Below are positions 1,402-43,477 of a stretch of 45,176 bases of DNA, one piece after another. A program made the translations under genes and the position numbers. The notes beneath the pieces are model-generated. The model made no database searches and was not told the origin of the DNA. It was given only the letters and a program-made list of their open reading frames with translations. This stretch comes from Escherichia phage vB_EcoS-22664BS2. Each line of letters opens with the position of its first letter. The stretch's first letter is position 1. The stretch is taken from sequence record NC_073324.1, one strand, 5' to 3'.

Positions 1402-1423
1402 ATCTATTTTCTGTGATGACTAG

Positions 1424-1452
1424 TTGACTATTATCCTCGACCCTATTATATT
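1424..1452 (+). promoter_or_regulatory. sigma70-like promoter (TTGACT-N17-TATATT)
   Basis: Near-consensus -35 and -10 with 17-nt spacer; leader shares the CGACAACGAGA motif with other promoters. Confidence 0.55.
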
Positions 1453-7085: not shown

Positions 7086-7110
7086 AAGGCCCCATAAGGG
7101 GCCTTTTTAT
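7086..7110. terminator. terminator between portal (+) and a minus-strand small gene
   Basis: GGCCCC-ATAA-GGGGCC hairpin followed by TTTTT; sits between convergent genes. Confidence 0.6.
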
Positions 7111-7392
7111 CTATACAAATGTAAATCCAGTGCTGGTAGCGGTGTAACTGGTGGCGCCGTTTTTCGTTTCGGGCCAACAGATATACGAGCGCCCGCGATA
7201 CTCTACCCACCAAAGTTCCACATCGGAGTCCCCGTTAGGTCTAGTCAACCACCCGTGGTGTAGCCAATACTTGCGCCCTATTTTAAATATATCTTCTTCA
7301 CTGGAAGTCCACTCCTGAGCGACACACTCTACCTGAACGCTATCAACACATACACATGTAAGATATAAATCACTGTTTGAATATTTAGCCAT
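7111..7392 (-). CDS. hypothetical protein (93 aa), moron-like insert in head module
   Basis: Internal ATG at codon 37 of track ORF; own promoter and RBS; opposite orientation to flanking structural genes. Confidence 0.5.
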   Translation of the reverse strand: MAKYSNSDLYLTCVCVDSVQVECVAQEWTSSEEDIFKIGRKYWLHHGWLTRPNGDSDVELWWVEYRGRSYICWPETKNGATSYTATSTGFTFV

Positions 7393-7427
7393 TTCTAAAT
7401 TCCTTATCTCTCGTTTCGATGCAATGA

Positions 7428-7456
7428 ATAGTACCCTATTATGTTGGTGTCTGCAA
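7428..7456 (-). promoter_or_regulatory. sigma70-like promoter (TTGCAG-N17-TACTAT) for 7111..7392
   Basis: Read on minus strand; member of the conserved promoter family. Confidence 0.5.
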
Positions 7457-9007: not shown

Positions 9008-9036
9008 AAAAGGCCCCATTAAGGGGCCTTAGTTTT
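9008..9036. terminator. bidirectional terminator between convergent genes
   Basis: AAAGGCCCC...GGGGCCTT hairpin with T/A runs on both sides. Confidence 0.6.
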
Positions 9037-9239
9037 CAACGGAATCTTGTGTTTAAATCCTGCTCGTGGACGACCCTCAGAACAGTGTCATAATCCCCGT
9101 ATCTTCCAGGTTCAAATATATCTAATGCCTTGTAAGCAGACATTGCGTCAGGGAAAACCTGCAGAACCTTTTTAACACGGCACAAGTCACCGTCGAACTC
9201 TTCATCGAACTCTTGAACTACTTCGCAAATTGCATACAT
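9036..9239 (-). CDS. hypothetical protein (67 aa), moron-like
   Basis: ORF track; own promoter, GGAGGTG RBS and terminator. Confidence 0.5.
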   Translation of the reverse strand: MYAICEVVQEFDEEFDGDLCRVKKVLQVFPDAMSAYKALDIFEPGRYGDYDTVLRVVHEQDLNTRFR

Positions 9240-9266
9240 TTTTCACCTCCTGCTTAAGTTAACTGA

Positions 9267-9295
9267 ATAGTACCCTATTATATTGGGGTGCGCAA
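9267..9295 (-). promoter_or_regulatory. sigma70-like promoter (TTGCGC-N17-TACTAT) for 9036..9239
   Basis: Conserved promoter family. Confidence 0.5.
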
Positions 9296-9361
9296 ACTAT
9301 TTATTCGACTATTCCAGTTATTCCGCTCAATTGTAAATGTTGGAATAAACTATTCGAATAG

Positions 9362-9390
9362 TTGACTTTTCACTGAAAATGTGCTAAGCT
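9362..9390 (+). promoter_or_regulatory. sigma70-like promoter with extended -10 (TTGACT-N17-TGcTAAGCT) driving ncRNA candidate 1
   Basis: Same promoter architecture repeated at 41851-41879. Confidence 0.5.
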
Positions 9391-9393
9391 CCA

Positions 9394-9597
9394 CCTGAGC
9401 TTGTGAAGTATGAACAAGCGACCGCGGCGCGGGCAGGTAACGGAGCGGGACGTAAGTCCTGAGTGTAGTTACGCTGACGCGTTCGGAAGGGCCATAGTCT
9501 ATTGCTTGTGTAAAAAGTAACTGGTTTACTGAGATTACGCCGTTTCTATGTTTAAATGATAAGGACTAGCGCCCCGCTTTATGGCGGGGCTTTACTT
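9394..9597 (+). ncRNA. candidate structured non-coding RNA, copy 1
   Basis: Promoter upstream and hairpin plus T-run terminator at 9569-9597; first 38 nt identical to 41883-41920, rest aligns with indels. Confidence 0.4.
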
Positions 9598-9614
9598 ATC
9601 GAGAAAGGAGAAAC

Positions 9615-10001
9615 ATGAATCTTAAAGCAACTGTCGTAGCGGGAGCATGTTTCATCATCCTGGCTTACACACACGGCATCTACCAGTACCGCATCGGCTG
9701 GAACGAAGGCCGGGCGAATCTCGTTTCTCAGCAACAGCAGAAAGCACAGGCCGAGATGACTAAGAAAACACAACGGCAGCAGCAGGACGAATCAAAGGCC
9801 GCAGCCGCTGACAACGAAGGCAAGACGAAATCAGAGGTGATCACCCGTGAAGTCGTTAAGTACATTAAAACGCCTGGTCGCAGTGTGTGCGCTTTTGACC
9901 CTGAGCGCGTGCAGCTCAAGTCCCGCGCCGTCGCAAACGCCAACTCCATCCCCGGATACGACGATGATGCAGCCGCCGTGCAAACTGGCAGCGCCAAGTA
10001 G
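9615..10001 (+). CDS. i-spanin (Rz-like)
   Basis: N-terminal TM segment, then Gln/Ala-rich coiled coil; AAGGAG RBS. Confidence 0.6.
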   Translation: MNLKATVVAGACFIILAYTHGIYQYRIGWNEGRANLVSQQQQKAQAEMTKKTQRQQQDESKAAAADNEGKTKSEVITREVVKYIKTPGRSVCAFDPERVQLKSRAVANANSIPGYDDDAAAVQTGSAK

Positions 10002-10110
10002 CGACGCGGACGAGGATTTAGCTATCGACGTTCAGAACGCCGAATGCGTACGGCAACTGAGGCTGAAAGTGTTCATGTTGCAGGATTACGTGAGGAATAT
10101 TCTGGAATAG
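9847..10110 (+). CDS. o-spanin (Rz1-like lipoprotein) in +1 frame overlapping the Rz-like gene
   Basis: Signal peptide with lipobox LSAC, Pro-rich mature region; starts inside the Rz-like ORF and ends beyond it. Confidence 0.55.
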   Translation: MKSLSTLKRLVAVCALLTLSACSSSPAPSQTPTPSPDTTMMQPPCKLAAPSSDADEDLAIDVQNAECVRQLRLKVFMLQDYVRNILE

Positions 10111-10192
10111 TTGCCTTGCATGTTGGAATAATTTATTCTTGACATGTAAATCCGGGTGGCCCGGATTCCAACGTCCAGGGGACATACTGACT

Positions 10193-16354: not shown

Positions 16355-16380
16355 AAGGCCCCTTTCGGGGCCTTTTTCTT
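16355..16380. terminator. bidirectional terminator
   Basis: AAGGCCCC-TTTC-GGGGCCTT hairpin plus T-run, between convergent genes. Confidence 0.6.
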
Positions 16381-16933
16381 ACAAACCTAATTTTAAAGCA
16401 ATGTCTATAACGTTCGATTTAACGTCACCCGGTATGATGTAGGTGTCGTAATCTTTTACACCACTAACATCGTACAGATAGCCACGGCTATCGCAGATGA
16501 ACGTATAGCCGTCACGATGGAGGCGGACGATTCGCACGTCATGCCCCGCGGCGACGATAGGGGCAACTTCACTGGCGAATCCACCATCGGACACTACAAA
16601 AACTTCGTCGCCGTCAGGCAAGTTTTCAGCAAGATACTTACCGAAATAATCATCGCCGAATACCGGTTTAATGAATTGCTCAGAAATGGCAATCATTAAC
16701 CGGCGGCGGGACAACCCATTAAGAAAACCCTCGGGTTTTTCTTTCCGCGCCCGGTCGTCGTAGCCGTCGAGAAATTCGTGGTAAGCATCCTGGCCTAACG
16801 CTGCCAAAGCAATATTGAACATTGGATTCTTGAAACTGGTAGTTCCTTTCGCAAAGCCCATTTCTACCAGCGCCATAGCAAGCGTGTCTTTCCCGCAACC
16901 CGCAGGGCCATTAAGAATAATTACCTTAGCCAT
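16379..16933 (-). CDS. P-loop nucleotide kinase, dNMP-kinase-like
   Basis: Walker A GPAGCGKDT and overall layout resemble T4-type deoxynucleoside monophosphate kinase. Confidence 0.55.
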   Translation of the reverse strand: MAKVIILNGPAGCGKDTLAMALVEMGFAKGTTSFKNPMFNIALAALGQDAYHEFLDGYDDRARKEKPEGFLNGLSRRRLMIAISEQFIKPVFGDDYFGKYLAENLPDGDEVFVVSDGGFASEVAPIVAAGHDVRIVRLHRDGYTFICDSRGYLYDVSGVKDYDTYIIPGDVKSNVIDIALKLGL

Positions 16934-17421
16934 TATTTATCGCTCCCGTGTGGTTTTAAGTGTGTAGAGTTCCCGTTACAGTCGTATTCGGTAACTGCGT
17001 GTGCGGTTATGCCGAGGTCACGGAAATGCTTTATTACCGCTGGAGAGTCGTCGAACGCACACAAGATTCTTTCCAGTCCGAAAGCACGCAACACCTCTTC
17101 TTTAATTACGATGTCTTTTCTGTTGTCGTGTTTGCTGCGCATGATTAGCGTGTCAAACCTAACGTTATTCTCTCGTAACCATTCGCGAGTCTCCTCCTCA
17201 GCGTCATCACTTCGCCCGGTAAGGATAATTATAGTAAGTCCGGAATGCCACAGTACGCTACACAAATGGATATTGTCGTATATCGGAGCGTCATCTTTGC
17301 AGGCCATGTTAAATGGCTTCCACGCCCACGTTTCTCCGTAGTTATCTTTTGGTAACAGGTGTAAGCGATGGGTACCGTCGGCCAATGTCCCGTCTAAATC
17401 GAAAATTACAATATCTTTCAT
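16933..17421 (-). CDS. HAD-superfamily phosphatase (nucleotidase or 3'-phosphatase-like)
   Basis: N-terminal FDLDGTL motif (DxDGT); small capless HAD. Confidence 0.6.
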   Translation of the reverse strand: MKDIVIFDLDGTLADGTHRLHLLPKDNYGETWAWKPFNMACKDDAPIYDNIHLCSVLWHSGLTIIILTGRSDDAEEETREWLRENNVRFDTLIMRSKHDNRKDIVIKEEVLRAFGLERILCAFDDSPAVIKHFRDLGITAHAVTEYDCNGNSTHLKPHGSDK

Positions 17422-18548
17422 CCCAGCATCTCCGGTGAAATAGTTAAACGTGCGACCTCGCCATATTCGGCGCTATAAGTAATTACATTTGCACTGCGGC
17501 CCGACATCCATCCGCCGCGAGAGGCGTAGGCGTCTTTAGCCGCTAAGGTGCGGTGTTGCTCAACAATCATGTTACGGCTTTCTACAATCTTCTGGTGGTG
17601 CAGATGGCCTACGTGGGCGTAGCTGTAAACACTCTCGCCGAACGCTTTACGGAACTTGGCAATCATAACCGGTTCGATAGCGTCGAATCGTGCTTTATGC
17701 CCGTGATGGAAGAACAGCGTCGTTTTGCCGTGTTGCACCATCTTGTAAACATCCGGCGACGTATCAACAATCACTCGGCTGTCGTTTGAGTATAAAACCG
17801 TGAACATTTCGGCAAGCCATACGGAGCCAACAGGGTCGTGGTTACCTTGAACGATTAAAAGTTTTACTGTGTGATGCTTAACCAGCGCCATATCAACAAC
17901 ACGGCGGACCATACGAATCATGTAACGTACCAGTTTCTGATAGCGAGTATCCGCATCTAATACATGGCGCGACTCGGGGGTAACGGCATCAAGACTATCG
18001 AAGTGTGCGAAGTCCCCAAGCAGGTTAATAACTCCTGTTCCTGCATCCGGTGCTTTCTGAAACGCCGCGTCGAACCACCGAGAGAACAGGTCTTCTGCAA
18101 TCTTCATGTCCCAGTCGTCGCCGCTCTCATCGGCCCATGCCAGCATACCGAGATGGAAATCAGATACAGTGTAAAGATTGAGTAGCTTGTCGTCACGTTT
18201 GGCGCGCGCCGCTTTAACAGGCGCAACGGGCGTAATCTCTGACTTCATGCCCTCTATTACGGCTTTCATCAATTCAACCTGACGTTCGGCGTCGGTATCA
18301 GTCTTAACCCATTGCAACTTAGTGTTGCCGAACTCGTCCACAAGTGACGACGTTCCTTTAATCTTGTAGCCGTCTGGCACAAGGTGGCTAACGTCGCGCC
18401 CGTGGCCCACGCCTTTCTTAGCCAGCTTCGCTTTACGGATACGAATTACGCGGTCTGAGATGCCGTATTTACGGGCGATATCTACATTCTTCATACCGGC
18501 GTTCAATTCTTCCTGCAACTGTTCGTCGGTTATTTTCTTCCGGGCCAT
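17418..18548 (-). CDS. metallophosphoesterase with N-terminal HTH domain
   Basis: Calcineurin-like motifs DFH, GDFAHFD, GNHD, HHGH, GHLHH; N-terminal segment NVDIARKYGISDRVIRIRK is HTH-like. Confidence 0.6.
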   Translation of the reverse strand: MARKKITDEQLQEELNAGMKNVDIARKYGISDRVIRIRKAKLAKKGVGHGRDVSHLVPDGYKIKGTSSLVDEFGNTKLQWVKTDTDAERQVELMKAVIEGMKSEITPVAPVKAARAKRDDKLLNLYTVSDFHLGMLAWADESGDDWDMKIAEDLFSRWFDAAFQKAPDAGTGVINLLGDFAHFDSLDAVTPESRHVLDADTRYQKLVRYMIRMVRRVVDMALVKHHTVKLLIVQGNHDPVGSVWLAEMFTVLYSNDSRVIVDTSPDVYKMVQHGKTTLFFHHGHKARFDAIEPVMIAKFRKAFGESVYSYAHVGHLHHQKIVESRNMIVEQHRTLAAKDAYASRGGWMSGRSANVITYSAEYGEVARLTISPEMLG

Positions 18549-18585
18549 GTTTATTCCTCGTGCTTAGGATTTGTCCTATACTAGC

Positions 18586-18777
18586 TCACTTCTCTTTGAC
18601 ATTCGAGTTGCAAGCCCAGATTAAAATAAATACCCACGGCAGCAGAACCCATCCAAGAAACAGATTAGCCATGAATATCGCTAATTTCGCTTTATGGTCG
18701 CGCATATGCGCCACGAGAAATGGAATAAAATAAACTAAAACGATAATGATTAAGAAGAACATAGTAATACCCGTCAT
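18586..18777 (-). CDS. small membrane protein, superinfection-immunity-like
   Basis: ATG at codon 47 of track ORF; two TM segments; NLFLGWVLLPWVFILIWA resembles the Imm family signature (from memory). Confidence 0.4.
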   Translation of the reverse strand: MTGITMFFLIIIVLVYFIPFLVAHMRDHKAKLAIFMANLFLGWVLLPWVFILIWACNSNVKEK

Positions 18778-18818
18778 GGTGTAGCTCCTGTTTGGGATAA
18801 CATCGTTGGTGTAAGTGA

Positions 18819-18847
18819 ATAGTACACTATTATATTGGGGTGTGCAA
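18819..18847 (-). promoter_or_regulatory. sigma70-like promoter (TTGCAC-N17-TACTAT) for the minus-strand cassette
   Basis: Conserved promoter family. Confidence 0.5.
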
Positions 18848-31001: not shown

Positions 31002-31677
31002 GATTAGCCTCGTAAACTGCTTTTGCGAAACCCCGAGGAGTAAGGCTGCGGATTGTTTTTGTCCGCACTGATTTACCGCCAAGTTTGTTGTGCTGGTCAG
31101 AATACCCATCACCCACGGCAACACCTGACTTAACCGGCATTACGAAACCATTACCCGTCCAAAGACATGTCTTTTTAGGGTACGCGTCTCGGGGTTTTAT
31201 GTATTCAGGGAACATTGGATGCGTATCGTCTTCCGGTAGATAGCCGCCGTATTCGTAAGGATTGAACACATAATCGGGCTTACGCCACAAAGACGAGAGG
31301 ACGCTAACTGGGTTCTCAATCATATAAGGTACGTTATACCTTTTAGCCAGGCGTGCCGCCACTTTGCATGTGATAACAGCCTCTACCTGAAACGTTGGGT
31401 TCTTCTTACGCTTCGTTTCGAAATGCGCCGCACCACTAACGGCTAAATCTGTGCAAGGAGGGAACGCAAAAATAATATCTGGCGAAACCTCGAAGTCGAA
31501 CTTATTATCAATCCACGCGTTTATATAGTGGATGTTCTCGTGTTCAACTTTTGCGCCCAATCGCGCGTAGTCGCCGTGGTCGGCACCGTCGTAGTTGAAA
31601 CAATAGCAAGTATGGCCCGCTTCTGCCCACGGTCGGGCCATAAGGCCCGAACCGTCAAACAATGACCAGACAATCAT
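30994..31677 (-). CDS. compact DNA C5-cytosine methyltransferase-like protein (227 aa)
   Basis: Motif I FDGSG, motif IV FPPC, motif VI ENP in canonical order; too short for a full target-recognition domain. Confidence 0.55.
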   Translation of the reverse strand: MIVWSLFDGSGLMARPWAEAGHTCYCFNYDGADHGDYARLGAKVEHENIHYINAWIDNKFDFEVSPDIIFAFPPCTDLAVSGAAHFETKRKKNPTFQVEAVITCKVAARLAKRYNVPYMIENPVSVLSSLWRKPDYVFNPYEYGGYLPEDDTHPMFPEYIKPRDAYPKKTCLWTGNGFVMPVKSGVAVGDGYSDQHNKLGGKSVRTKTIRSLTPRGFAKAVYEANHV

Positions 31678-31865
31678 TTTGCCACCAGCACCAGCTCTTT
31701 ACGCCCGAACGCCGTAACGTTACCAGTTACATCTTCGATAACCAGTTTACCGTTCGACTCGACGAACACCGTATCAACGGCAACAGGGCGACGTGTCTTA
31801 ACGTTGAAAATCATGTCGCCAGGTACGATGTCACGTGCTGGTTTACGGTCATATTCGTGTTTCAT
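31674..31865 (-). CDS. hypothetical protein
   Basis: ORF track; own promoter and AAGGA RBS. Confidence 0.45.
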   Translation of the reverse strand: MKHEYDRKPARDIVPGDMIFNVKTRRPVAVDTVFVESNGKLVIEDVTGNVTAFGRKELVLVAK

Positions 31866-31895: not shown

Positions 31896-32180
31896 CTAAC
31901 TATAATAGTTCGCTATTAGGTCGTCAACCTGTTTAAACGAACCAACGACAAAAACATTTGCACCGCGTTTACGGAATCTTTCATGCTCGCGTAACTGGTG
32001 GGGGTCAGGCTTCGTGTTTTCGTCTTTCTTAATCTCGACGAACCAGATGATACCGCCGGGGAGAATTACCAGCAGGTCCATGGCGGCTCGCCGGCCTTCA
32101 AATGCCATCTTGCGAACGAGGCCACCAATGGCCTCGAATCGCTCTTTTGCGTATTTCTGAATCTTGCCTTCCGGGGTCAT
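31896..32180 (-). CDS. VRR-NUC nuclease
   Basis: DLLVILPGG...FVEIKK pattern (PD-(D/E)XK core). Confidence 0.6.
   Translation of the reverse strand: MTPEGKIQKYAKERFEAIGGLVRKMAFEGRRAAMDLLVILPGGIIWFVEIKKDENTKPDPHQLREHERFRKRGANVFVVGSFKQVDDLIANYYS
31899..31927 (-). promoter_or_regulatory. sigma70-like promoter (TTGACG-N17-TATAGT)
   Basis: Conserved promoter family; lies in the 3' end of the upstream gene. Confidence 0.45.
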
Positions 32181-35399: not shown

Positions 35400-35454
35400 T
35401 TCTCGATTCCTCAGTTTTCAGTTTACTCCGGGAGCTGCCCGGCCAGTGATTAGA

Positions 35455-35483
35455 ACTATAATAGCTAACTATTCAGGTGTCAA
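35455..35483 (-). promoter_or_regulatory. sigma70-like promoter (TTGACA-N17-TATAGT)
   Basis: Consensus -35, 17-nt spacer. Confidence 0.5.
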
Positions 35484-38260: not shown

Positions 38261-38289
38261 ACTATAATAGCGAACTATTCACATGTCAA
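38261..38289 (-). promoter_or_regulatory. sigma70-like promoter (TTGACA-N17-TATAGT)
   Basis: Consensus elements; divergent from the XRE gene promoter. Confidence 0.5.
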
Positions 38290-38293
38290 TGGG

Positions 38294-38322
38294 CTTTTCT
38301 AAAATAATTAATATGGTACTAT
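38294..38322 (+). promoter_or_regulatory. extended -10 promoter (TGgTACTAT) for XRE regulator
   Basis: TGn plus TACTAT; weak -35. Confidence 0.45.
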
Positions 38323-38353
38323 TCACATATCAACTGACTAAGGAGTAATTGAC

Positions 38354-41850: not shown

Positions 41851-41879
41851 TTGACTTTTACTAAAAAATATGGTAAGCT
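41851..41879 (+). promoter_or_regulatory. sigma70-like promoter with extended -10 (TTGACT-N17-TGgTAAGCT) driving ncRNA candidate 2
   Basis: Same architecture as 9362-9390. Confidence 0.5.
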
Positions 41880-41882
41880 CAG

Positions 41883-42095
41883 CCTGAGCTTGTGAAGTAT
41901 GAACAAGCGACCGCGGCGCGCGGCAGGCGAAACGAGCACGTGTAGCGTGTGGAGTGAGGCTCGCTAGCGCGTTTGGGAGGCCCAAAGTCTATTGTAAATC
42001 CCACCTAAATATCTAAGTTACTGATTTGCCGTAGGTCAGAACCGCAAGCTCACTCACTCACTCTTGGTGCCTTCGGCACCCCGTTCGTTTCGTTT
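41883..42095 (+). ncRNA. candidate structured non-coding RNA, copy 2
   Basis: 38-nt block identical to 9394-9431; ends in GGTGCC-TTCG-GGCACC hairpin with T-rich tail. Confidence 0.4.
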
Positions 42096-42147: not shown

Positions 42148-42176
42148 TTGCACACCCCAACATAATAGGATACTAT
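42148..42176 (+). promoter_or_regulatory. sigma70-like promoter (TTGCAC-N17-TACTAT) for early operon
   Basis: Conserved promoter family; leader ATCGAAACGAGACAGAGGAG. Confidence 0.55.
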
Positions 42177-42210
42177 TCACTTATCGAAACGAGACAGAGG
42201 AGTGAGGGTT

Positions 42211-42964: not shown

Positions 42965-43270
42965 ATGGGTGAGTGGATTGAGTGTAGTGAGCAGATGCCG
43001 AAAACAAGCGGTCCGGTTCTGGCGTTTTATGTTAATCGATGTGGCAAGGGCAGAAGAGTCAGAGCTAAATATGTCCACTTTCGGCAAGTAGAGGCAGGTT
43101 GCGAAACTGAAGAAATATGCACTGATTATGATGAAGAAAAGGATATTTATTACTTGTCTGAAGGCTGGTATGAGCTCATCGATAACTGGGACGATTATAG
43201 CAGTATCGTGATTACGGAAGGCAATGTAACACACTGGATGCCATTACCAGAACCACCATCGCTGGTGTAA
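42965..43270 (+). CDS. DUF551-like protein (C-terminal HWMPLPEPP motif)
   Basis: ORF track; motif shared with 36910..37167. Confidence 0.5.
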   Translation: MGEWIECSEQMPKTSGPVLAFYVNRCGKGRRVRAKYVHFRQVEAGCETEEICTDYDEEKDIYYLSEGWYELIDNWDDYSSIVITEGNVTHWMPLPEPPSLV

Positions 43271-43305
43271 CAGGTCAATAGGTTACTATTTGTCTTTGTG
43301 ACTTA

Positions 43306-43335
43306 CGCTGCTGTGTAGCAGCGTATCATTTTTCT
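43306..43335 (+). terminator. intrinsic terminator
   Basis: CGCTGCT-GTGTA-AGCAGCG hairpin followed by T-rich run. Confidence 0.5.
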
Positions 43336-43418: not shown

Positions 43419-43447
43419 TTGCACGCTGAGATGGAATAGGCTACTAT
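43419..43447 (+). promoter_or_regulatory. sigma70-like promoter (TTGCAC-N17-TACTAT)
   Basis: Conserved promoter family; leader ACGAGAGGAGAGACAGAG. Confidence 0.5.
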
Positions 43448-43477
43448 TCATTCACACAAACGAGAGGAGAGACAGAG

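Follow-up and report, generated by a model that had tools for sequence, protein, structure and literature searches.

The closest known counterparts of the element considered here include the operators of the Cro and repressor proteins of phage 434, 14-bp dyads in which the outer bases are conserved and the centre varies; they overlap core promoters and stand, as sites of graded quality, in a divergent control region. The 434 half-site is ACAA with a 6-bp centre, and the half-sites of the P22 C2 repressor are TTAAG and CTTAA. A third group, the C proteins of restriction–modification systems (C.AhdI, C.BclI and C.Esp1396I), are small XRE-only dimers that bind promoter-overlapping dyads and set a time delay with graded autoregulation. 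In the case of P22 C2, the dimer contacts the outer halves of its site, and the central four base pairs are left uncontacted (PMC4267663). Here, we analyze an inverted repeat, AATAG-N4-CTATT, in Escherichia phage vB_EcoS-22664BS2 (NC_073324.1), the whole 45,176-bp stretch of which is referred to below as the window. On balance, we consider it probable that this dyad is the operator of a phage-encoded dimeric helix–turn–helix (HTH) repressor, most likely a 71-residue protein with an HTH_3 domain, and the system most likely works like a 434/P22-type Cro–operator pair placed in a strictly virulent phage. Binding, repression and the identity of the binder are what we infer from the sequence.

The dyad AATAGNNNNCTATT is found nine times in exact form in the window (Table 1), compared to an expectation of 0.01 from dinucleotide-preserving shuffles, none of which (0 of 100) attained nine copies. 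When one mismatch is allowed, there are 13 matches against 0.99 expected, among them the imperfect copy AATATGGTACTATT upstream of the HTH_3 gene (termed O2 below). In an unbiased enumeration of all palindromes of the form 5-Nx-5 with x from 0 to 10, the dyad ranked first both in the window and in the related Escherichia phage VB_EcoS-Golestan (hereafter Golestan), with the runners-up being terminator stems or hairpins. Seven of the nine exact copies lie entirely in intergenic sequence, which makes up 7% of the genome; the other two merely touch the 3′ ends of genes. Beyond the dyads themselves, the half-sites show a mild enrichment (five within 60 nt versus 1.5 expected), with one of the five being O2.

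The window is essentially the complete genome of a Kagunavirus-type virulent siphovirus of the Guernseyvirinae. A megablast search with its 15-kb segment 30000–45000 matched 487 phage records; Golestan came first, with ~93% identity across 80% of the query. Its annotation (78 genes) was transferred to the window by tblastn; by our gene map, 93% of the window is coding. The plus strand carries the structural and lysis genes and, from 42.2 kb onward, a block of small open reading frames (ORFs), while the replication and recombination genes are on the minus strand at about 29–41.7 kb. Three short minus-strand cassettes (7111–7392, 9036–9239 and 16379–18777) lie within the structural module. A search of the window against Rfam gave zero matches.

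Eight of the nine exact dyads overlap predicted sigma70-type promoters, which fall into two classes. In the five class A promoters, a −35 element of the form TTGCRC is followed after 10 nt by AATAGGnTACTATT; the −10 is TACTAT, the spacer 17 nt, and the dyad occupies −19 to −6. These promoters match the sigma70 consensus at only 3/6 positions of the −35 and 4/6 of the −10, below the threshold of a simple sigma70 scan, and the non-consensus TACTAT is present in all five, its C and T being right-arm positions. They have a common block of about 32 nt (TTGCACACCCCAAYAT...) and, before the dyad, share the conserved upstream block TTGCRCACCCCAAYAT (e.g., 42148–42163, 18832–18847 and 9280–9295). Further, several of them show an extra AATAG/CTATT half-site immediately upstream of the −35 (9297 and 42140); this half-site or the upstream block could be the site of a second factor or an auxiliary half-operator. 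The three class B promoters have a −35 of TTGACA/G followed after 4 nt by AATAGnnnnCTATT and directly by ATAGT. Here the −10 is TATAGT, and the dyad lies within the spacer at −25 to −12, sharing only its final T with the −10. With 10–11 of 12 consensus positions, they are the three best sigma70 matches in the 20–40 kb region, and they head the replication and recombination operons.

These results bear on the sequence-only reading, a model's first look at this DNA, which had described a 14-bp inverted repeat common to at least eight promoters and proposed a motif search for it. The repeat was recovered, with one more exact copy than described, and the spans given for the eight promoters proved right to the base, including both hexamers and the 17-nt spacers. 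Its statement that the right arm forms part of the −10 holds for the five class A promoters with TACTAT, and fails for class B, where the overlap is the single T noted above; nor is TATTAT the −10 of any class B promoter. The imperfect dyad that it placed at the XRE gene promoter is indeed there, as O2.

Table 1. Copies of the dyad in the window, the predicted promoters that they overlap, and the genes of the two candidate binders.
Feature	Coordinates	Strand	Promoter elements	Genes downstream, or remark
Degenerate dyad ACTAGTTGACTATT, one mismatch	1419..1432	+	TTGACT(1424-1429)-17-TATATT(1447-1452)	Lies over the -35
Candidate operator dyad, class A	7427..7440	-	-35 TTGCAG 7456-7451; -10 TACTAT 7433-7428	Inserted minus-strand 93-aa gene 7111-7392, missing from Golestan
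Candidate operator dyad, class A	9266..9279	-	-35 TTGCGC 9295-9290; -10 TACTAT 9272-9267	Minus-strand 67-aa gene 9036-9239
Candidate operator dyad, class A	18818..18831	-	-35 TTGCAC 18847-18842; -10 TACTAT 18824-18819	Minus-strand superinfection-immunity, repair exonuclease and PNK genes within the tail module
Candidate operator dyad, class B	31904..31917	-	TTGACG(31927-31922)-17-TATAGT(31904-31899)	63-aa gene, methylase, helicase, primase
Candidate operator dyad, class B	35460..35473	-	TTGACA(35483-35478)-17-TATAGT(35460-35455)	DUF2815 single-stranded DNA-binding gene and DNA polymerase gene
Candidate operator O1, AATAGTTCGCTATT (minus-strand reading), class B	38266..38279	-	TTGACA(38289-38284)-17-TATAGT(38266-38261)	Leftward recombination/replication operon
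Candidate imperfect operator O2, AATATGGTACTATT	38310..38323	+		30 nt upstream of the HTH_3 start codon
HTH_3 (XRE/Cro-C1 type) protein, 71 aa	38354..38569	+		Leading candidate repressor
HTH_17 (excisionase/MerR-like) protein, 62 aa	41564..41749	-		Alternative candidate; first gene of the helicase-primase operon
Candidate operator dyad AATAGGATACTATT, class A	42164..42177	+	-35 TTGCAC 42148-42153; -10 TACTAT 42171-42176	Rightward small-ORF operon from 42212; orthologous copy in Golestan
Exact dyad AATAGGTTACTATT, ninth copy	43277..43290	.		Without usable -35
Candidate operator dyad AATAGGCTACTATT, class A	43435..43448	+	-35 TTGCAC 43419-43424; -10 TACTAT 43442-43447	Genes from 43478

The control region of the HTH_3 gene deserves separate description. 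It is a 121-nt divergent region with a perfect site, O1, and the imperfect O2 at a distance of 44 bp, a layout that also occurs in the Jerseyviruses and, in variant form, in the Cornellviruses. In addition to overlapping the leftward promoter, O1 abuts the −35 of a candidate rightward promoter for the HTH_3 gene. The single mismatch of O2 (G5 to T) is kept in all Kagunavirus loci, and its Jerseyvirus counterpart, ATTACTNTACTATT, has two mismatches. Likewise, the single mismatch of the degenerate copy at 1419 is kept in the Kagunaviruses and its Jerseyvirus counterpart is AATAGTTGACTAGT. The promoterless copy at 43277 stands 7 nt past the stop codon of the ORF 42965–43270 and 13 nt before a terminator (43304–43325). 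It is found in some Kagunaviruses only, and may be an auxiliary operator or a roadblock. We also considered looping between 43277 and 43435 and set it aside: the spacings are 158, 159 or 169 bp, and with many Kagunaviruses lacking the site there are too few cases to argue from.

Our analysis showed that the dyad does not simply follow from the −10: its registers differ, its arms are conserved, and a Cornellvirus-like promoter is kept without the exact dyad. First, the dyad takes at least four registers relative to the −35 and −10. Its position in class B is shifted by 6 nt from that in class A; an offset of 7 is seen in a Jerseyvirus and in Cornellvirus promoters, and an offset of 5 where an inserted base stretches the spacer to 18 nt. 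Insertions between the −35 and the dyad occur with the dyad retained. Second, drawing on about 50 related phages, we aligned the 110 nt upstream of the DUF2815 gene or the 63-aa gene from each locus, chosen independently of the dyad and deduplicated to 29 unique DUF2815 promoters (Kagunavirus and Jerseyvirus) and 22 of the 63-aa gene. The pairwise differences, given here for DUF2815 and the 63-aa gene in that order, were low in the −35 (0.01 and 0.17), the left arm (0.04 and 0.018), the right arm (0.00 and 0.018) and the rest of the −10 (0.09 and 0.105), and higher in the spacer from −35 to dyad (0.32 and 0.32), the N4 centre (0.47 and 0.47) and the 20 nt upstream of the −35 (0.49 and 0.175). 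With the arms near the level of the promoter hexamers and the N4 high, the arms are constrained like the hexamers and the centre is not. Third, in three Cornellvirus-like contigs the DUF2815 promoter retains its −35, its −10 and the hairpin of its 5′ untranslated region (5′UTR) with altered arms (ATTAG/ACTAT/ATTAT and GTATT/GTAAT/CTATT); hence, this promoter is kept without need of the exact dyad. The sequence-only reading had named a dyad no more conserved than the −10 consensus as the outcome that would speak against it, and the arms instead turned out to be conserved independently of the −10. Taken together, the dyad is very probably a protein-binding site under selection.

The same comparisons bear on a published view of the element. 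In phage fBC-Eco01, the program PHIRE yielded seven "Phage RNAP promoters", PP1–PP7, with the consensus tgAATAGTa-ccTATTat-T, including TGAATAGTACCCTATTATAT and TGAATAGTACCATATTAATT, the latter being O2 (PMC9825357, supplementary table S2); seven promoters were similarly listed in the Golestan genome paper (PMC7203180). We found that these PHIRE promoters are the dyad elements at the same genomic places. Neither paper mentions the palindrome, its changing register or the missing RNA polymerase (RNAP) gene (PMC9825357, PMC7203180). Our literature search, which did not cover the 2015 subfamily paper, found no operator or repressor interpretation of the repeat and no experimental work on it. The repeat has thus already been published, most likely under a wrong label. 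Could the label nevertheless be right in the sense that no separate protein is involved, with the dyad being intrinsic to a phage-specific promoter that is read by an RNA polymerase (that of the host, a phage-modified form or one of the phage) and was spread by module duplication? The PHIRE listings accord with this, as does the common ~32-nt block of class A, which fits copied modules. Against it, an RNA polymerase gene is absent from the 78 annotated genes of Golestan and from their transfer to the window; the element coexists with sigma70-type −35 and −10 hexamers and shifts its register by at least 6 nt between classes, moving relative to the −35 through indels; the left arm, at −25 to −21, is conserved like the −35 though it is not a known sigma70 contact; in Cornellvirus-like phages this promoter persists, with its −35, −10 and 5′UTR, although the arms are degenerate; and one exact copy (43277) is promoterless. 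We therefore rejected promoters of a phage RNA polymerase as a candidate, and give the wider idea of a dyad without a protein of its own only a slim chance.

We then traced the dyad through 64 loci with 10-kb flanks, collected from a viral contig collection with the HTH_3 protein alignment as the query. Every Kagunavirus locus (HTH_3 94–100% identical) and every Jerseyvirus locus (48–49%) has 2–6 exact dyads, and none was found in the Cornellvirus-like (HTH_3 41–43%) or more distant loci of this set. Golestan has eight dyads at orthologous positions, the ninth of the window belonging to the inserted gene 7111–7392. In the Jerseyvirus jersey, the dyads are at orthologous promoters with differing N4 and are often lengthened to TAATAG-N4-CTATTA. 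A scan of viral contigs for AATAGNNNNCTATTATAGT returned as multi-match contigs exclusively 41–45 kb genomes of the Guernseyvirinae type; single matches elsewhere were no more than chance would give with 15 specified bases. The Cornellvirus Shemara has no exact or one-mismatch dyad, and its orthologous class B promoters and HTH_3 promoter instead carry ATTAG-N4-GTAT(T/A). More generally, a Cornellvirus variant ATTAS-N4-STAWT is present on six core promoters at orthologous places, e.g., TTGACA-N7-ATTACTGTTCTAAT-AT and TTGCAA-N7-ATTAGTGTCGTAAT-AT in Shemara, with a TAATAT −10 supplied by the right arm; related Cornellvirus-like contigs have similar sites. AATAG-N4-CTATT is a perfect case of the more degenerate palindrome AWTAS-N4-STAWT. 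As read from these genomes, a dyad set on the core promoter appears to be a design common to the three genera, with a genus-specific half-site.

This distribution also speaks to the idea that the dyad is the site of an enterobacterial transcription factor or nucleoid protein of the host. It is identical in phages of E. coli and Salmonella, hosts with nearly the same regulators, as this idea would have it; yet the Salmonella-infecting Cornellviruses have a different variant on the same promoters, and the genome itself encodes two suitable HTH proteins. No enterobacterial factor is known to us whose consensus is AATAG-N4-CTATT, and the ATAG-N7-CTAT of OxyR differs from the dyad in spacing. A host-encoded binder is accordingly very unlikely.

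The first of the two phage proteins, HTH_3, is the only XRE protein of the window and is present in Kagunavirus, Jerseyvirus and Cornellvirus. It shows the five-helix HTH of the Cro/C1-type domain in family, sequence and structure comparisons alike. It matches Pfam HTH_3 above the gathering score (E = 3.9e-13), and over its full length it matches 434 Cro (phmmer, E = 8.5e-6), the 434 repressor (~1e-5) and P22 C2 (E = 0.005). Its single-sequence AlphaFold model (predicted local distance difference test score 81) matches HipB, C.BclI, 434 Cro, SinR, P22 C2 and C.AhdI with template-modelling scores of 0.6–0.7, and the Foldseek matches include the P22 C2 structures 2r1j and 3jxb. With its 71 residues it equals 434 Cro in length, and it is 36–39% identical to the 434 proteins (3CRO, 2OR1) in structural alignments. 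The dyad, in turn, has the form of the operators of the 434 and P22 kind (5-N4-5, with DUF2815 arms at 0.00–0.04 versus 0.47 for N4), and its conserved 5-bp arms and free N4 match the contact pattern of P22 C2, whose half-sites likewise end in AG...CT. Two unrelated contigs (L041 and L042) with HTH_3 homologues of 45% identity have TAAAG-N4-CTTTA twice, at −84 and −38 of the gene. We prefer HTH_3 as the binder because of the match between family and site geometry, the position of O1 and O2 beside its gene, and its presence in all three genera, including the Cornellviruses that are free of HTH_17; judged on these grounds, it has somewhat better than an even chance of being the protein that binds the dyad. 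In one Jerseyvirus contig (L052; IMGVR_UViG_638275545_000001), the HTH_3 gene is split by a frameshift at about 9950–10165 with the dyads retained, which reflects either an error in an old sequence record or a naturally mutated HTH_3. We had considered this contig as a natural swap of HTH_3 and dropped it, the gene being merely frameshifted.

The second protein, HTH_17, would fit the same operator logic if it were made from a dyad-free immediate-early promoter and repressed or otherwise controlled the dyad promoters. It is confined to Kagunavirus and Jerseyvirus, the genera with the exact dyad, with no Cornellvirus match, and is 80–100% conserved in most of their loci compared to 48% for HTH_3. 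In a phyletic profile of the ORFs of the window against Jersey and Shemara, those specific to Kagunavirus and Jerseyvirus were HTH_17, the 63-aa protein and a primase fragment, of which HTH_17 would be the only plausible DNA binder. Moreover, its own promoter (TTGCTT-17-TATACT, minus strand, 41803–41775) is the one clear promoter of the early region that lacks the dyad, as expected of a first-expressed regulator. On the other side, the phyletic match is a single evolutionary contrast; the Cornellviruses have the related dyad on the same promoters without HTH_17; its sequence matches in the PDB are weak, generic and confined to the HTH motif; and an allele of 70% identity has an altered recognition helix (STMTLNRW), although the dyads of the phages that carry it are unchanged. 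Winged helices of the HTH_17/excisionase type typically bind direct repeats, or act as monomers or filaments, and do not bind 5-N4-5 palindromes, which we counted against HTH_17. Finally, a "specific DNA binding" gene of the Kagunavirus K1B4 that may be HTH_17 is listed as middle rather than early (PMC12645636). We consider HTH_17 an unlikely binder. As for the 63-aa protein itself (31674–31865, minus strand), it belongs to PHROG 4879, with no family and no HTH; it is 95% identical between Kagunavirus and Jerseyvirus, far above its neighbours, and has no Cornellvirus match.

With HTH_3 as the presumptive repressor, the following course of events may be proposed. At the onset of infection, host sigma70 RNA polymerase would fire all dyad-bearing promoters, the five of class A expressing small early genes and the minus-strand moron cassettes, and the three near-consensus ones of class B the replication and recombination operons. 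With rising levels of the repressor, each 14-bp site would be occupied by a dimer that contacts the two 5-bp arms but not the central 4 bp and that excludes RNA polymerase, so that early and middle genes are shut off jointly; the regulator's own promoter, with the weaker O2 beside the perfect O1, would be autoregulated last. All sites lie within the region covered by RNA polymerase (−40 to −6), in several registers: eight of the nine exact ones fall between −25 and −6 of predicted promoters, and the copy at 1419 lies over a −35. Since each site is inside the core promoter or over the −35, a bound protein should exclude RNA polymerase, and we favour steric repression because it is the only mechanism indifferent to register. 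The conserved mismatch of O2 is what would let the regulator's own promoter close last. Control through the dyad is thus probably negative. In an RNA-seq study of K1B4, four genes peak early, and one of them has an HTH domain (PMC12645636); gene order suggests that it is the HTH_3 orthologue. The time points of that study (5–120 min) apparently span several infection cycles and are too coarse for a shut-off to be seen.

An opposite sign of control, in which a phage protein at the same site stimulates the weak promoters of class A, and perhaps its own promoter too, appears improbable. It would account for the poor hexamers of class A (TTGCAC, 3/6; TACTAT, 4/6), which escape the sigma70 scan, and for the place of O1, whose centre is about 40 bp upstream of the predicted start of an alternative HTH_3 promoter, TTCACA-16-TAAAAT. 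This is the class II activator position, the one that lambda CI takes at OR2, and a dual role in which O1 also activates the HTH_3 promoter could be envisaged as a speculation. Yet, the dyad sits inside the −35/−10 interval at three or more registers, so that no single activation geometry fits, and the class B promoters, at 10–11 of 12 consensus positions, have no need of an activator. Activation by binding in the spacer in the manner of MerR was rejected, as the spacers are 17 nt, occasionally 18, and not the over-long 19–20 bp of such promoters.

Several observations weigh against repression by HTH_3 through the dyad. The recognition helices of HTH_3 read SQGAINQL in Kagunavirus, SQSLITHL in Jerseyvirus and TQSAISHL in Cornellvirus: the first two differ although the half-site is identical, and the third is nearer to that of Jerseyvirus, yet the Cornellvirus site differs. 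Hence, the specificity does not simply track the HTH_3 helix. The phyletic pattern of the exact dyad matches HTH_17 and not HTH_3. The Cornellvirus patterns ATTASNNNNGTATW (4 matches in Shemara versus 0.28 expected) and AWTASNNNNSTAWT (5 versus 0.67) were defined post hoc from three sites and are only pseudo-symmetric, and the variant at the DUF2815 promoter is not conserved among Cornellvirus-like contigs. The promoter registers are hexamer predictions and the start sites are likewise predicted, and the weakness of the class A hexamers makes positive control possible there. The suggestion of the sequence-only reading that one regulator gates the whole set of early and moron promoters therefore survives in part. 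A shared operator agrees with the registers, the conservation of the arms and the 434 Cro/P22 C2 family of HTH_3, whereas "the whole set" is too wide: the HTH_17/helicase–primase promoter is dyad-free, and this operon would escape the proposed repression. In its most far-reaching form, one Cro-like protein without CI would be the master clock of the virulent Guernseyvirinae, shutting essentially every early and middle sigma70 promoter, including those of horizontally acquired morons that bring the operator along or gain it, from four registers, with half-sites that co-evolved (AATAG versus ATTAS) and perhaps with self-activation from O1; this we put forward tentatively, as a rather doubtful extension.

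If HTH_3 is the repressor, the system would depart from the known ones chiefly in its deployment. Compared to 434, the sites are single and dispersed over at least nine promoters of a virulent genome rather than gathered in tripartite OR/OL arrays, and the phage has no CI partner, integrase or lysogeny functions (PMC7203180). We accordingly discarded a lambdoid lysis–lysogeny immunity region as a candidate, given the one XRE gene, the lack of CI and integrase among the 78 annotations of Golestan, for which no lysogeny genes were reported (PMC7203180), and the dispersed single sites. Whereas P22 C2 uses 18-bp sites in a lysis–lysogeny switch, a stand-alone timer in a strictly lytic phage would apply here. 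The C proteins, structural neighbours of the HTH_3 model, act on their own operon only, where they bind a pair of adjacent dyads and serve as activators as well as repressors; in the phage, one type of dyad is spread over many unlinked promoters.

Few phages of E. coli and Salmonella are isolated for therapy and biocontrol as often as Kagunaviruses and Jerseyviruses, and despite this their transcriptional programme is essentially uncharacterised. Should one repressor and one 14-bp operator indeed serve about ten promoters, the early-to-late switch of the subfamily could be tested with one protein and a few oligonucleotides, and phage engineering would gain a compact orthogonal part in the operator–repressor pair. 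The label "phage RNAP promoters", a recurrent annotation error, could also be corrected. Furthermore, the presence of the same operator at inserted moron cassettes suggests that new genes are recruited into the timing circuit of the phage.

Individual dyad-bearing loci show further features. The gene 7111–7392 lies between the portal and head-morphogenesis genes, has no family match, and is flanked by a bidirectional terminator (7086–7105) and its own class A promoter and dyad; the segment 7086–7456 looks like a moron cassette wired into the timing circuit. The 31904 promoter, with its dyad, is wholly within the 3′ end of the upstream nuclease gene (31896–32180, minus strand), so that the dyad doubles as part of a coding sequence. 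Four Kagunavirus contigs (L014, L016, L018 and L020) have, in place of this promoter, unrelated sequence that includes a terminator-like hairpin. The leader of the DUF2815 gene (5′UTR on the minus strand, 35400–35455) contains AATCACTGGCCGGGCAGCTCCCGGAGTAAACTGAAAA, which is conserved in the three genera (L003, L036 and L037). In Shemara, CCGGG...CCCGG is replaced by CCTGG...CCAGG, a compensatory pair that retains the hairpin, and the leader may be a translational or autoregulatory RNA element. A short motif, (A)AACGAGA(G), occurs 10–20 nt downstream of dyad promoters and before the ribosome-binding site at 1465, 42188 and 43459 (plus strand) and at 7409 and 38242 (minus strand). Five of its nine genomic copies are in such leaders, and genome-wide it is not enriched (9 versus 5.6 expected).

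Lastly, the two largest non-coding gaps, 9357–9598 and 41852–42095 (plus strand), hold a paralogous block with 76% identity and a near-identical core of about 60 nt. Both copies start with TTGACT-17-TAAGCT, continue with ...CCTGAGCTTGTGAAGTATGAACAAGCGACCGCGGCGCGGGCAGG... and end in an intrinsic terminator (9571–9590 and 42066–42080, respectively), and the first has a one-mismatch dyad, AATAGTTGACTTTT, over its −35. There is no Rfam match to either block, and folding gives z-scores of just −1.2 and −1.7; the blocks may represent a non-coding transcript of about 200 nt that is present in two copies.

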